64,000 bases of DNA from a virus: the IMG/VR virus record IMGVR_UViG_3300027659_000015, positions 1-64,000 of that record. The stretch is one strand, 5' to 3'. Both the position numbers and the translations under genes were made by a program. Positions 11,065 to 17,936 of the stretch are shown here, in pieces (the first letter of the stretch is position 1; each line of letters opens with the position of its first letter). The notes under the pieces were generated by a model. It worked only from the letters and a program-made list of their open reading frames with translations. It was not told the origin of the DNA and made no database searches.

Positions 11065-11715
11065 ATGTTTCACTATTGTCCCCCTAAAGATTTACAAGAC
11101 CTACAAGCAACCACCTTTCCTGATGGTAAGAGATACTACACTCTACCAGATGGCACAAGATTACCATCAGTCACCACAGTAATTGGTGCAAAAGGTAAAG
11201 AGGCCATTCTTAAATGGCGGCAGAGAGTTGGTGAAGAAGAGGCAAACAAGATATCACGGAAAGCATCAAGCCGTGGTACAAATGTTCACACACTATGTGA
11301 ACGATATTTAAACAATGAAGCACTTGGTGACATTATGCCTGATGCAAAGGCAATGTTTCTACCACTTAAACCCATATTAAATCGAATCAATAACATTCAT
11401 TACCAAGAATGTACACTTTGGTCTGTCAATCTTGGAATGGCAGGCCGTGTTGACTGTATTGGTGAATTTGATGGTGTTTTGTCTGTAATTGACTTTAAAA
11501 CATCCAAAAGAATCAAGAAAAAAGAAGATATTGACAATTACTTTGCACAATGTGTGGCATATGCCTGCATGTATGAAGAACTGATTGGAAGTGGTATCGA
11601 CCAAATCGTCATTATTATGGCTGTAGATAATGAGGAACCACTGGTTTTTATTGAGAAAACGGCAGACCACCTAAATACTTTATTGGAGTACATAAAGTTT
11701 TATAGGGAAAATTAA
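11065..11715 (+). CDS. PD-(D/E)xK exonuclease (Cas4/RecB-like fold, T4-like phage exonuclease)
   Basis: LPSVTTV, RGTNVH, AGRVDCI..IDFKTS and QCVAYA motifs. Confidence 0.85.
   Translation: MFHYCPPKDLQDLQATTFPDGKRYYTLPDGTRLPSVTTVIGAKGKEAILKWRQRVGEEEANKISRKASSRGTNVHTLCERYLNNEALGDIMPDAKAMFLPLKPILNRINNIHYQECTLWSVNLGMAGRVDCIGEFDGVLSVIDFKTSKRIKKKEDIDNYFAQCVAYACMYEELIGSGIDQIVIIMAVDNEEPLVFIEKTADHLNTLLEYIKFYREN
11672..11677 (+). promoter_or_regulatory. late promoter inside the exonuclease 3' end, serving the adhesin pair
   Basis: cTAAATA about 40 nt upstream of the 11716 ATG. Confidence 0.45.
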
Positions 11716-14302: not shown

Positions 14303-14331
14303 TTGCCAAACTAAAATAAATATAGTATAAT
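14303..14331 (+). promoter_or_regulatory. promoter for the tmRNA locus (sigma70-type, with a late TAAATA in its spacer)
   Basis: TTGCCA(14303-08)-N17-TATAAT(14326-31); aTAAATA at 14316-14322. Confidence 0.7.
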
Positions 14332-14413
14332 GGACTACTTCGAACCCATCATATTAATAATTTGCCTAATAACCATAGGATGGTTAATATGGTACTATAA
14401 TAAGATGGGTGAC

Positions 14414-14702
14414 TGAATTGTTGTATGAAGCAACTAGAAAAGTATTCTGGACGGGGGTGCGAATCCCCCCAGCTCCACCAGAAGCACATGTCTTAGATGA
14501 AAGAAACCGTTTTACGGGCTCTAATGGGGTGTGTTTCTGATGGGGCTGCATAGTTTCGACAGGGTAACAAGTATAGAAGTGGACAACTCACCAGAGTAGG
14601 TGTAAAAACTAAATCAAAGTAAACGCAAACGACTCACAGTTCGCATTGGCAGCCTAAACGCTGACTAGGGTTCGATAGGTTCCTCGTAACAGAATACCTA
14701 TC
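14414..14702 (+). ncRNA. ssrA: circularly permuted (two-piece) tmRNA: acceptor piece ~14414-14480, intervening segment 14481-14541, coding piece 14542-~14702; tag ANDSQFALAA
   Basis: T-arm GGGGG-TGCGAAT-CCCCC and 3' CAGCTCC-A-CCA (ending 14480) lie upstream of the 5' strand GGGGCTG (14542); 7-bp acceptor stem with G3-U wobble; PK1 CACC/GGTG plus AGT/ACT; resume codon GCA at 14625 to TAA at 14657. Confidence 0.93.
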
Positions 14703-14730
14703 AACATTTTCAATAACAATAGGAGTTTTA

Positions 14731-15267
14731 ATGAAGAAATTAGCAATCGCAACTTTGGTTGCATTAAGTGTATCAGCATATGCTGGTGATACCGTTACTG
14801 TTGAAGGTCAACGTATCAACAACGCTGGTGCAGCTGCACAACAACAATATGTTTTGGGTGTTAAGAAAGACTTCGGCAATTTCGCTGGTGATGTATCTTT
14901 CGCAAATGCGCAAACTGAAGGCACAAATGTTTTGAGCACTCGTTTAGAAGCAGGCGCAACAGTATCAGGTCCAGTTGGATTGTATGCTCGTACTGCTATT
15001 GGTCAAAAATATAGCAATACAGCCGACTTCAACTACTATTCAGTAGAACCAGGTTTTACTGCACCAATCGGTGCTGGTTTGACTGCTAAGGTTGGGTATC
15101 GCTGGCGTTCTGCTTTTGCTACTACAAACGGTGACCAAACACATACAATGCGTTATGCTGTGTCTTATGCTTTGAATAAGAACGATGCTGTTGCAGTGAA
15201 GTATGACCGTGTTCAAGGTGACAGCAATCAGAAAGTTGTTGCTGTAGCATACACAGTAGGTTTCTAA
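14731..15267 (+). CDS. outer-membrane beta-barrel protein (small porin-like)
   Basis: Sec signal (MKKLAIATLVALSVSAYA), about 10 amphipathic strands and a C-terminal beta-signal AYTVGF. Confidence 0.8.
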   Translation: MKKLAIATLVALSVSAYAGDTVTVEGQRINNAGAAAQQQYVLGVKKDFGNFAGDVSFANAQTEGTNVLSTRLEAGATVSGPVGLYARTAIGQKYSNTADFNYYSVEPGFTAPIGAGLTAKVGYRWRSAFATTNGDQTHTMRYAVSYALNKNDAVAVKYDRVQGDSNQKVVAVAYTVGF

Positions 15268-15666: not shown

Positions 15667-16146
15667 ATGAAGAAATTCATTCTAATTACATTATTTGCTT
15701 TAACACCGGTAGTTGGTCATCAACAACCAGTAACAGAGGTACAAGAAGTATCAGGTGAACTAGGTCAACAAATTCTATGCATGGCTAAGAATCTATATTA
15801 TGAAGCCGCAAGTGAATCCTTTGAAGGTAAATTAGCGGTAGCACAGGTAACTATGAACCGTGCTAATTCAAAACAATTTCCAAAATCAGTTTGTGAAGTT
15901 GTTTATCAAAAAGTAAATCAAACATACCAATTCAGTTGGGTTGGTGAACGTGTCGGTCCTATCAGAAACAAATATGCATGGGAAGAGTGTATGATTGTTG
16001 CCAGAAAGGCCTTGACAGAAGGCGTATTACATGATATAATACACAAAACAAATTCAATGTACTATCATAATACATCGGTAAATCCGGCATGGAAACTGAA
16101 GTATGTTGCTAAAATTGGAAACCATCTATTCTATACAAGAAGTTAA
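15667..16146 (+). CDS. cell wall hydrolase, SleB/Hydrolase_2 family, with signal peptide
   Basis: CMAKNLYYEA..E...GKLAVAQVTMNR, FPKSVCEVVYQ, QFSW and IGNHLFY. Confidence 0.9.
   Translation: MKKFILITLFALTPVVGHQQPVTEVQEVSGELGQQILCMAKNLYYEAASESFEGKLAVAQVTMNRANSKQFPKSVCEVVYQKVNQTYQFSWVGERVGPIRNKYAWEECMIVARKALTEGVLHDIIHKTNSMYYHNTSVNPAWKLKYVAKIGNHLFYTRS
16012..16040 (+). promoter_or_regulatory. consensus sigma70 promoter inside the hydrolase CDS, upstream of gp33
   Basis: TTGACA-N17-TATAAT with TGn. Confidence 0.75.
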
Positions 16147-16147
16147 A

Positions 16148-16369
16148 ATGCCGACAAAAAATGAAATAAGTGAATTTAGTATGAAGATAGCAGAAATGGC
16201 TGAAGAATCAAATCTTACAATCATGGACGCTATCGTTGTATACTGTGAACAAACGGGCATAGAGATTGATGTGGCATCCACATTGGTTTCTTCTGCCTTA
16301 AAAGCCAAACTAAGAGAAGAAGCACAAGAACTCAATCTATTGAAAAAGAGTGCCAAACTACCCATATGA
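16148..16369 (+). CDS. gp33: late transcription coactivator gp33
   Basis: FS..I......MDAIV.YCEQ..IE......L....LKAKL..EA..LNLL; located before gp59 and gp32. Confidence 0.85.
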   Translation: MPTKNEISEFSMKIAEMAEESNLTIMDAIVVYCEQTGIEIDVASTLVSSALKAKLREEAQELNLLKKSAKLPI

Positions 16370-16986
16370 TTTTCAACTTTGAGGAAGGCTCTGGCTTCTC
16401 GGCCTTTGCCATGTTCAATGCGCTTAAACTTCATTTTACTACTGATTCTTACGATTATATTCGTTACCACGGAAAGTCCAATGTTACTGCCGATAATTTT
16501 GCCAACAGAAAGGACAAATATTCTTTCTATAAATTATCTCGTAAGTACCGACTGGAAGAATTAAAGAACTTCTATGTGTCAAACCTCCTAGAAAAAGATG
16601 TCAACTGGATCGGTGACATTAATAACCTAGATGGTGAAGAAACTTATAAGAAGTGGCAAAAAAGAAATCAGAGCTTGACATATCGCTTCGAACAAGATAT
16701 AATACACCTACTTAATGATGCACAATCACCAAATCAAATGTTGATGGTTGAAGATGGACAATATCCATCGTTGCTGAAAGAAGTAATGTATAGTAGTGTT
16801 GCGGTAGAAACCTTGGTTATATTGAATGACATTATGAATTTCTTTCCTATGTGGGACAAAAAGATTGCTGACACAATCGTATGGCCTTCTATGAGATTAA
16901 AATTTATAAAGTATACACCATTTATTGATTATGATAAGCCAAAGTTTACCACAATACTGAAGGAGTGTTTGAAAGAACACGCCTAA
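16366..16986 (+). CDS. gp59: helicase loader gp59
   Basis: ALKLHFT...YDY..Y.GK and RKDKY.FYKLS; synteny 33-59-32. Confidence 0.9.
   Translation: MIFNFEEGSGFSAFAMFNALKLHFTTDSYDYIRYHGKSNVTADNFANRKDKYSFYKLSRKYRLEELKNFYVSNLLEKDVNWIGDINNLDGEETYKKWQKRNQSLTYRFEQDIIHLLNDAQSPNQMLMVEDGQYPSLLKEVMYSSVAVETLVILNDIMNFFPMWDKKIADTIVWPSMRLKFIKYTPFIDYDKPKFTTILKECLKEHA
16675..16703 (+). promoter_or_regulatory. consensus sigma70 promoter inside gp59, upstream of gp32
   Basis: TTGACA-N17-TATAAT. Confidence 0.7.
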
Positions 16987-17063: not shown

Positions 17064-17936
17064 ATGACAGATTTTTCAAAACTAAAAAAGAGTTCAGGCA
17101 ATCTGGACAAACTTACTAAAGCCATCGAGCAAATCTCAAGCTCATCAGAAGGTGGTAAATCCGACAAAGACAACTATTGGCGACCAGAAGTAGATAAAGC
17201 AGGTAATGGCCTTGCCGTTATTCGTTTTCTACCTGCTGCAGCAGTTGATGGTGATGATGGTCTTCCTTGGGCTAAAATCTTTGGTCATGGATTTCAAGGT
17301 CCAGGTGGTTGGTTAATCGATAATTGTTTGACTACTAAAGGTCAACAATGTCCAGTATGTGAACACAACAACAAGTTGTGGAACTCTGGTGTCGAAGCCA
17401 ACAAAGAAGTTGTACGTAAACAAAAGCGTAAACTCTCATACATTGCTAACGTGTATATCGTAAGTGATCCTAAGCATCCAGAAAACGAAGGACAAGTTAA
17501 ATTGTTCAAGTTTGGTGCCAAGATTTTCGAAAAGGTTACTGAGGCAATGAACCCACAGTTTGAAGATGAAACACCAATCAATCCATTTGATTTATGGAAA
17601 GGTGCCAACTTCAAGTTGAAGATTACTAAAGTTGCTGGTTATCAGAATTATGATAAGTCAGAATTCATGTCCTCTACACCATTGTTGGAAGATGATGATG
17701 AATTGGAAAAGATTTGGAAATCACAGCATTCGCTTACAGCGTTGACTGCTGATAAAGAATTCAAATCATATGATGACTTGAAGGCTCGTTTGGACAAAGT
17801 GTTGGGTGCTACTGATGTACCTAAAACTACTGTGGAAACTCTGAAGGCTGCACCTAAGAAGGCAGTAACAGCAGATATCTCAGAAGATGAGACAGATGAA
17901 GATTTGGCTTACTTCTCTAAGTTGGCTGAAAATTAA
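17064..17936 (+). CDS. gp32: single-stranded DNA-binding protein gp32
   Basis: DKAGNG.AVIRFLP, HGFQGPGGW..NC.TT....CPVC, NPFD.W.GANFKLK, YDKSEF and an acidic tail. Confidence 0.97.
   Translation: MTDFSKLKKSSGNLDKLTKAIEQISSSSEGGKSDKDNYWRPEVDKAGNGLAVIRFLPAAAVDGDDGLPWAKIFGHGFQGPGGWLIDNCLTTKGQQCPVCEHNNKLWNSGVEANKEVVRKQKRKLSYIANVYIVSDPKHPENEGQVKLFKFGAKIFEKVTEAMNPQFEDETPINPFDLWKGANFKLKITKVAGYQNYDKSEFMSSTPLLEDDDELEKIWKSQHSLTALTADKEFKSYDDLKARLDKVLGATDVPKTTVETLKAAPKKAVTADISEDETDEDLAYFSKLAEN

Follow-up and report, generated by a model that had tools for sequence, protein, structure and literature searches.

tmRNA (SsrA) is the RNA that frees stalled ribosomes. Does the locus at 14414-14702 of this viral DNA encode such an RNA in two pieces, with the halves of its tRNA-like domain in reversed order, does the gene belong to the phage, and what would it do there? 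The window analysed here comprises the first 64 kb of an IMG/VR record of 105.7 kb, classed as linear by IMG/VR and estimated by CheckV to be about 63% complete. The results presented below indicate that the locus is very probably a functional two-piece tmRNA gene resident in an uncultured T4-like myophage of aquatic type.

Within the 64-kb window, ARAGORN calls a permuted tmRNA (tmRNA*) at 14388-14748 with the tag ANDSQFALAA, and it finds no other tRNA-type gene. Rfam matches the same RNA to RF01850 (beta_tmRNA) at 122.4 bits (gathering score 84, E 9e-37) over model positions 1-331, which is the full model, and to RF04321 (tmRNA_permuted) with 117.9 bits, well above its gathering score of 47. 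The RNA scores above the RF01850 threshold, genuine Rhodocyclaceae members of which reach about 300 bits. As expected for RF04321, the tRNA-like domain is split, and its 3' half lies upstream of its 5' half with a spacer between them. The tRNA-Ala-like domain consists of a 7-bp acceptor stem with G3:U70, a T-arm and a 3' CCA, and the short internal frame opens with a GCA resume codon, lacks an ATG or Shine-Dalgarno sequence and closes with a hydrophobic degron end. A sequence-only reading of this DNA had proposed a phage-encoded, circularly permuted tmRNA, to be checked with the tmRNA mode of ARAGORN and with permuted covariance models. Both searches were positive (tmRNA*, RF01850 and RF04321), and together with the flanking genes and covariation they uphold the proposal and show the gene to be complete. 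The same reading expected annotation to miss the gene, which is contradicted by its detection with ARAGORN and Rfam, both standard annotation tools. The parts of the gene are as follows.

14419..14480, + strand: acceptor piece, comprising the 3' strands of the inter-piece helices, the T-arm, the acceptor 3' strand and ACCA
14420-14424 and 14443-14449, + strand: 3' strands of the inter-piece helices, GUUGU and UAUUCUG
14453-14457 / 14465-14469, + strand: T-arm stem, with the loop UGCGAAU at 14458-14464
14470-14476, + strand: acceptor 3' strand, followed by the encoded ACCA at 14477-14480 (+ strand)
14481..14541, + strand: intervening segment of 61 nt with a covarying closing helix, predicted to be excised on maturation
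14481-14489 / 14529-14537, + strand: spacer-closing helix, GAAGCACAU / GUGUGUUUC
14538-14541, + strand: 4-nt leader UGAU, directly before G1
14542..14706, + strand: coding piece, from the acceptor 5' strand through the 3' pseudoknot
14542-14548, + strand: acceptor 5' strand GGGGCUG, followed by UUUCGA
14560-14566 and 14583-14587, + strand: 5' strands of the inter-piece helices, CAGGGUA and ACAAC
14590-14593 / 14600-14603, + strand: hairpin at the PK1 position, CACC / GGUG
14625-14657, + strand: tag ORF, GCA AAC GAC TCA CAG TTC GCA TTG GCA GCC TAA, encoding ANDSQFALAA*
14668-14671 / 14682-14685, + strand: stem A of an H-type pseudoknot, AGGG / UCCU
14675-14681 / 14697-14703, + strand: stem B of the H-type pseudoknot, GAUAGGU / ACCUAUC

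The sequence-only reading had located the T-arm together with CAGCTCCACCA (ending at 14480), GGGGCTG, the tag and GATAGGT/ACCTATC, and each of these positions was verified in the sequence. Covariation, the further check that it had called for, was assessed in sets of about 100 homologues from viral contigs, among the matches listed, and is present in four elements: the acceptor stem, the principal helix between the two pieces, the PK1-position hairpin and the 3' stem. The acceptor stem is formed by seven pairs between 14542-14548 and 14470-14476, including G3:U70. Its five major variants are all compensated and G3:U70 occurs in 109/109 family members (both among the matches listed), which backs the claim of an Ala-type acceptor stem with a G3-U wobble. 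The inter-piece helix UAUUCUG/CAGGGUA exists in at least 30 covarying variants, nearly all of them with 7/7 pairs, and had been identified correctly. The outer helix had been read as TGAATTGTT/GACAACTCA, a register that is off by 3 and is not the conserved pairing; the conserved helix, which matches the covariance model, is (N)GUUGU at 14420-14424 with ACAAC(N') at 14583-14587. The base 5' of GUUGU and the base 3' of ACAAC covary as A:U, U:A, G:C and G.U, and form a U.U mismatch in the window copy.

Downstream of these helices, the sequence-only reading had placed a PK1 pseudoknot before the resume codon. The 4-bp hairpin at this position covaries (CACC/GGUG, UGUC/GACA, UAUC/GAUA, UAAC/GUUA and CGAC/GUCG) and this part of the claim stands, but the second stem has at most 3 bp in the subgroup of the window. 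A genuine PK1 was rejected for that subgroup, which has only the hairpin and a possible 3-bp second stem. Similarly, the stem of the 3' hairpin GATAGGT/ACCTATC is supported by covariation, but it is in fact stem B of an H-type pseudoknot. Stem B is represented by 38 distinct helices in 64 sequences (median 8 bp), and the pseudoknot loop CGUAACAGAAU is strongly conserved. Stem A is invariant across the family (among the matches listed), therefore covariation is uninformative about it. The pseudoknot that contains the 3' stem is one of two elements that the earlier reading had missed, the other being the spacer-closing helix. A single-sequence minimum free energy fold, with a modest z of -2.5 against shuffles, did not reproduce the canonical structure and was dropped as evidence.

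U55, the site of pseudouridine-55, is almost universal in T-loops. In the T-loop UGCGAAU of the window copy it is replaced by G, which is unusual; a G55 T-loop is present in 35/109 phage copies (among the matches listed) and in 0/56 bacterial permuted tmRNAs, and by this distribution it defines one phage subclade. The tag ANDSQFALAA* was read directly in the sequence at 14625-14657, and the ARAGORN call gives the same tag. Across the family, among the matches listed, AND is contained in 93/104 tags and ALAA ends 80/104, with the general pattern AND-x-x-(F/Y)-ALAA, and at least 16 contigs have a tag identical to that of the window. Four viral contigs (L096, L117, L121 and L122) have aberrantly long tags, about 27-31 residues, with AV at the end (ANANTTVTVSGKNIKFSARTAKESLAV, ANASKGEVTVSAGKGIRFSARGSVKAETFAV) in place of ALAA; these tags could be miscalls by ARAGORN or belong to another type.

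The segment between the two pieces, which in the window is short and contains no gene, is itself structured. The spacer-closing helix covaries in 102 family members (among the matches listed), with a mean of 10.7 bp compared to 3.6 +/- 1.5 in shuffled spacers, and it nearly always begins right after the CCA and stops 4 nt before G1. Indirectly, this helix is a good argument that the precursor has a defined structure and is processed at 14480/14542, and a mature RNA in two pieces would be expected from it and from the order of the halves in the gene. The full CCA is encoded in 107/109 phage genes (among the matches listed) versus 2/56 Rhodocyclaceae genes, and the median spacer is 74.5 nt in the phage family (among the matches listed) versus 29.5 nt in bacterial two-piece genes.

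Two further features precede the acceptor piece.

14303..14331, + strand: sigma-70-type promoter TTGCCA-17-TATAAT (11/12 match), from which the tmRNA precursor is likely to be transcribed early
14330..14416, + strand: 28-codon ORF for a small, single-helix hydrophobic peptide, MDYFEPIILIICLITIGWLIWYYNKMGD, predicted and conserved at the protein level

The closely related contigs L013, L038 and L044 carry a perfect TTGACA-17-TATAAT at the same distance upstream, and a promoter with a match of at least 10/12 precedes 58/118 family copies (among the matches listed) versus 19/246 control windows. The element at 14303-14331 is likely to drive early synthesis of the tmRNA precursor. From the end of the -10 hexamer to the first helix there are about 10 nt in most members and 88 nt in the subgroup of the window, where the 28-codon ORF occupies a subgroup-specific 5' leader of ~80 nt. 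The frame is open and its protein is conserved in L013, L038, L044, L065 and L085, with 11/6/15 variable sites at the three codon positions. The ORF stops 3 nt short of the first tmRNA helix. The ATG overlaps the -10 hexamer, so that the transcript from the early promoter would lack the start of the ORF. Other subfamilies have different small ORFs that end 3-11 nt before the tmRNA, and an ORF for a basic 43-aa protein precedes the tmRNA on seven contigs (L026, L031, L046, L074, L103, L109 and L112). Downstream of the gene, no intrinsic terminator was found on the + strand after the window tmRNA, and the gene that follows (14731-15267, predicted to encode a secreted or outer-membrane protein) starts about 25 nt past the pseudoknot. 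The missing terminator and the adjoining gene suggest that the two are co-transcribed. Unlike the subgroup of the window, contigs L005, L008, L027, L050 and L051 have a tmRNA closed by a clear GC-rich intrinsic terminator.

To see how far the gene type extends, phage and bacterial collections were searched. In 50,697 phage records, blastn gave partial matches in Stenotrophomonas phages of the genus Menderavirus and in Synechococcus phage BUCT-ZZ01. An alignment of these with the window revealed the signature GTTGTATGA, which sits 21 nt before the T-arm. A scan of IMG/VR with this signature yielded at least 119 viral contigs with the same type of tmRNA, and for about 104 of these contigs the permuted form is also called by ARAGORN. 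A broader pattern, run on one genome per species for 185,579 bacterial and archaeal species, gave 97 matches. About 70 of these are Rhodocyclaceae two-piece tmRNAs, which have the signature GTTGTAATTCCGGC and the tag ANDERFA[L/I]AA, and most of the remainder are the 3' ends of ordinary tmRNAs. The phage signature itself was present in only one fragment among the 185,579 species genomes, a 563-nt MAG piece binned as Nitrosomonadaceae (L203). In addition, a 46-kb contig binned as Alteromonadales (L185, CALMJT010000228.1) groups with the viral sequences; both are probably mis-binned phage contigs in MAGs or prophage-like DNA.

The surroundings of the gene in the window are those of a T4-like phage.

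11065-11715: exonuclease gene, a T4-like neighbour, followed by a fibre or adhesin cassette and then the tmRNA
15667-16146: endolysin gene, downstream of the tmRNA
16366-16986: gp59-type helicase loader
17064-17936: gp32 single-strand-binding protein

The gp32 protein shares 52-60% identity with its counterparts in cyanomyophages and in Pelagibacter phage HTVC008M, and by this comparison the lineage belongs among the aquatic T4-like phages. No close cultured relative of the phage was found by blastn against the 50,697 phage records or by the gp32 comparison. A cluster of four tRNA genes lies near the far end of the record (105114-105547), about 90 kb from the tmRNA, and no composition break was seen at the tmRNA gene. 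Homologues of the neighbouring proteins were counted at the at least 119 viral loci; the fetched loci are short, hence the counts are lower bounds.

Exonuclease homologue adjoining the tmRNA: at least 53 viral loci
Endolysin homologue adjoining the tmRNA: at least 46 viral loci
gp59 homologue adjoining the tmRNA: at least 36 viral loci
92-aa ORF homologue adjoining the tmRNA: at least 35 viral loci
gp32 homologue adjoining the tmRNA: at least 23 viral loci

The identity of these neighbour proteins across loci ranges from about 35% to 98%, with 50-95% given for the recurrent neighbourhood, and some relatives with this type of tmRNA are complete, terminally repeated genomes. Judged from this conserved setting, the tmRNA is a long-standing resident of the phage lineage and no recent pick-up.

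Trans-translation also uses AlaRS, EF-Tu and RNase P in addition to tmRNA. No SmpB-like gene was found on the 105.7-kb record, which is about 63% complete, and none on four complete, terminally repeated relatives (124-363 kb) that have the same tmRNA family. A smpB could lie in the part of the genome that the record lacks, but the complete relatives have none. This extends the earlier observation that the window has no smpB, and it means that host SmpB is needed; the phage RNA would likewise use host AlaRS, EF-Tu and RNase P. From these features we infer processing, charging, tagging and a benefit to the phage, and the following pathway can be proposed. One precursor RNA would be made from the early sigma-70-type promoter, and the helix at the ends of the spacer, stacked under the acceptor stem, would present it for processing. 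Host RNase P would cleave 4 nt downstream of the closing helix to generate G1, and trimming would expose the CCA end that is already encoded, with the spacer being discarded. The acceptor stem and the two inter-piece helices would then hold both pieces together, and host AlaRS would charge the RNA via G3:U70. Host SmpB and EF-Tu would bring it to ribosomes stalled on broken mRNAs, where translation would resume at GCA and append ANDSQFALAA, a mark for ClpXP-type proteolysis, and the ribosome would be released. The likely benefit to the phage is extra ribosome-rescue capacity while mRNA is being degraded during infection. A role of the phage tmRNA in counter-defence is speculation.

The alternatives to a working phage tmRNA concern its ownership, its purpose and its integrity. 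A bacterial ssrA might have been carried at a prophage border or mis-assembled into a viral contig, given that tmRNA genes are known integration sites (PMC9004378; PMC11915505) and that the IMG/VR record is linear and 63% complete by CheckV. Such an origin is extremely improbable: T4-like replication and lysis genes stand on both sides of the tmRNA, composition shows no break at the gene, the same locus recurs in dozens of viral contigs, some of them complete and terminally repeated, and the signature occurs only in the one 563-nt MAG scrap among the 185,579 species genomes. The flanking genes, the synteny and the near-absence from bacterial genomes effectively refute host DNA at a prophage border as the source.

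If the gene is the phage's own, its RNA could still act against the host machinery as a decoy, either by titrating host SmpB or blocking host trans-translation, an action put forward for the TLD-only RNA of mycobacteriophage DS6A, or by re-targeting tagging to host proteins. A TLD-only molecule is reported to inhibit tmRNA (PMC4131195), and selective tagging of host proteins has been suggested by Buchholz et al. (PMC9004378). Furthermore, without a phage SmpB there would be competition for that of the host, and the unusual G55 T-loop could change how the RNA behaves. However, the tag frame with its conserved AND...ALAA degron, the resume context and the downstream pseudoknot are kept across a diverse family, and a pure decoy would need none of them, which makes this role quite unlikely. 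There is even less reason to regard the gene as a decaying relic that is non-functional in this phage, a very improbable reading. The U.U mismatch in the outer helix, G55 and the reduced PK1 might be taken as signs of decay, as might a score of 122 bits on a model that gives Rhodocyclaceae tmRNAs about 300 bits. These features are, however, common to the whole subclade (G55 in 35/109 members, the identical tag in at least 16 contigs), which retains compensatory changes and an intact tag, and the changes in the nearest relative fall in paired positions. A functional tmRNA gene that belongs to the phage remains the preferred reading.

Genes of this kind have been described in phages before. Phage tmRNAs have been known since the Bxz1 group of mycobacteriophages; as in the window, Bxz1-group phages and Bacillus phage G have an ssrA without a phage smpB, but theirs has the standard, unpermuted gene order (PMC4131195). 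Buchholz et al. (2022) reported a two-piece tmRNA with an early promoter upstream in the OM43 phage Melnitz, and found tmRNA genes in 402/18,146 phage genomes, 53 of them two-piece, with 50/53 of these from aquatic samples (PMC9004378). Melnitz, the pelagimyophages and others share with the window a permuted ssrA in a lytic, T4-like aquatic myophage, an early promoter and the lack of a reported phage smpB (PMC9004378). The Melnitz tmRNA, in contrast, is reported to be of alphaproteobacterial type and is accompanied by a glutamine riboswitch (PMC9004378), whereas the window RNA fits the beta model and a riboswitch was rejected, as Rfam finds none in the window. Likewise, blastn over the 50,697 records of the phage collection gave no link between the window and the Melnitz tmRNA. 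RF04321 was introduced with a tmRNA database of 2025, which contains 79 sequences from phages (PMC11915505).

The closest named counterparts are those of Menderavirus (Marzo, Yut2, IME-SM1, Moby and others) and BUCT-ZZ01, T4-like genomes of about 160 kb, which share with the window the GTTGTATGA-N21-T-arm signature and a permuted call by ARAGORN. In several GenBank records the Menderavirus feature is already annotated as tmRNA, and ARAGORN and Rfam show it to be permuted. These copies score about 94.5 bits with RF01850 and 112-119 bits with RF04321, have about 65% mean column identity with the window and encode the tags VAANDDSYTVRIAA and ANDETFSMALAA. They lie inside a tRNA cluster, whereas the window gene is located between the exonuclease and the gp32 block. 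The novelty that the sequence-only reading had implied is therefore not sustained, as two-piece phage tmRNAs were published in 2022 (PMC9004378) and the same family is annotated by GenBank in Menderavirus; the window gene is a further member of a large and widespread family. Several points go beyond the published work consulted: how large and coherent the family is, how rarely it occurs in bacterial genomes, that its sister group is the Rhodocyclaceae lineage, and that it has a conserved spacer-closing helix and a G55 subclade. A single gene of this kind matters little alone, given that two-piece phage tmRNAs are published and routine tools detect the one in the window. Of moderate value is a very common, well-conserved phage family whose members have a helix-closed spacer, an RNase P leader with a constant length of 4 nt, a CCA end encoded in the gene and one 3' pseudoknot, and which includes a subclade without U55. 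Being nearly absent from bacterial genomes and without a phage smpB, it offers a clean system for asking why lytic phages invest in ribosome rescue and where the third bacterial two-piece lineage originated.

Compared to the Rhodocyclaceae two-piece tmRNA (RF01850), the window gene has the same gene order, the same 25 nt from GUUGU to GAC and the same tag style, AND-E-x-F-A-L-A-A, but it scores 122 bits with RF01850 versus 293-305 bits, and phages have the motif GTTGTATGA where Rhodocyclaceae have GTTGTAATTCCGGC. A tree of the tRNA-like domain and the coding piece was calculated with IQ-TREE for 147 unique sequences. The 51 Rhodocyclaceae sequences form one tight clade with a support of 100 on a stem of 0.87 substitutions per site, and the viral sequences form a far more diverse radiation. 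The window tmRNA lies inside the viral radiation and outside the Rhodocyclaceae clade, which separates it from RF01850 by clade membership. To learn the direction of transfer, rooting was attempted with standard tmRNAs of the same GTDB order, 30 in number, that had been rearranged into the permuted order; none of the conclusions depends on a genome flagged there as unpublished. Viral, Rhodocyclaceae and standard sequences fell into three groups, each on one side of a branch, and this three-way split makes the phage clade sister to the Rhodocyclaceae lineage with neither nested in the other, in a short alignment whose viral set was gathered by sequence signature, which favours viral monophyly.

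Recent capture from Rhodocyclaceae is ruled out by the long separating branch and several fixed differences. The phylogeny that the sequence-only reading had proposed as a test for an independent permutation makes such an event unlikely, as the RNA is matched by the betaproteobacterial model and the Rhodocyclaceae lineage is its sister group. A more far-reaching and rather unlikely history is that of a separate, old phage lineage that has been inherited vertically at a fixed locus in aquatic T4-like phages and shares one permutation event with Rhodocyclaceae; in its boldest form, the Rhodocyclaceae ssrA would have come from such a phage. The tmRNA of Stenotrophomonas is generally regarded as one-piece, yet phages of this host carry the two-piece type. 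Within the viral radiation, the window belongs to a well-supported subclade of eight, in which all tags carry ANDSQFALAA and one ARAGORN call adds an N-terminal VN. The nearest relative of the window tmRNA is 96-99% identical to it, with the changes in paired positions.
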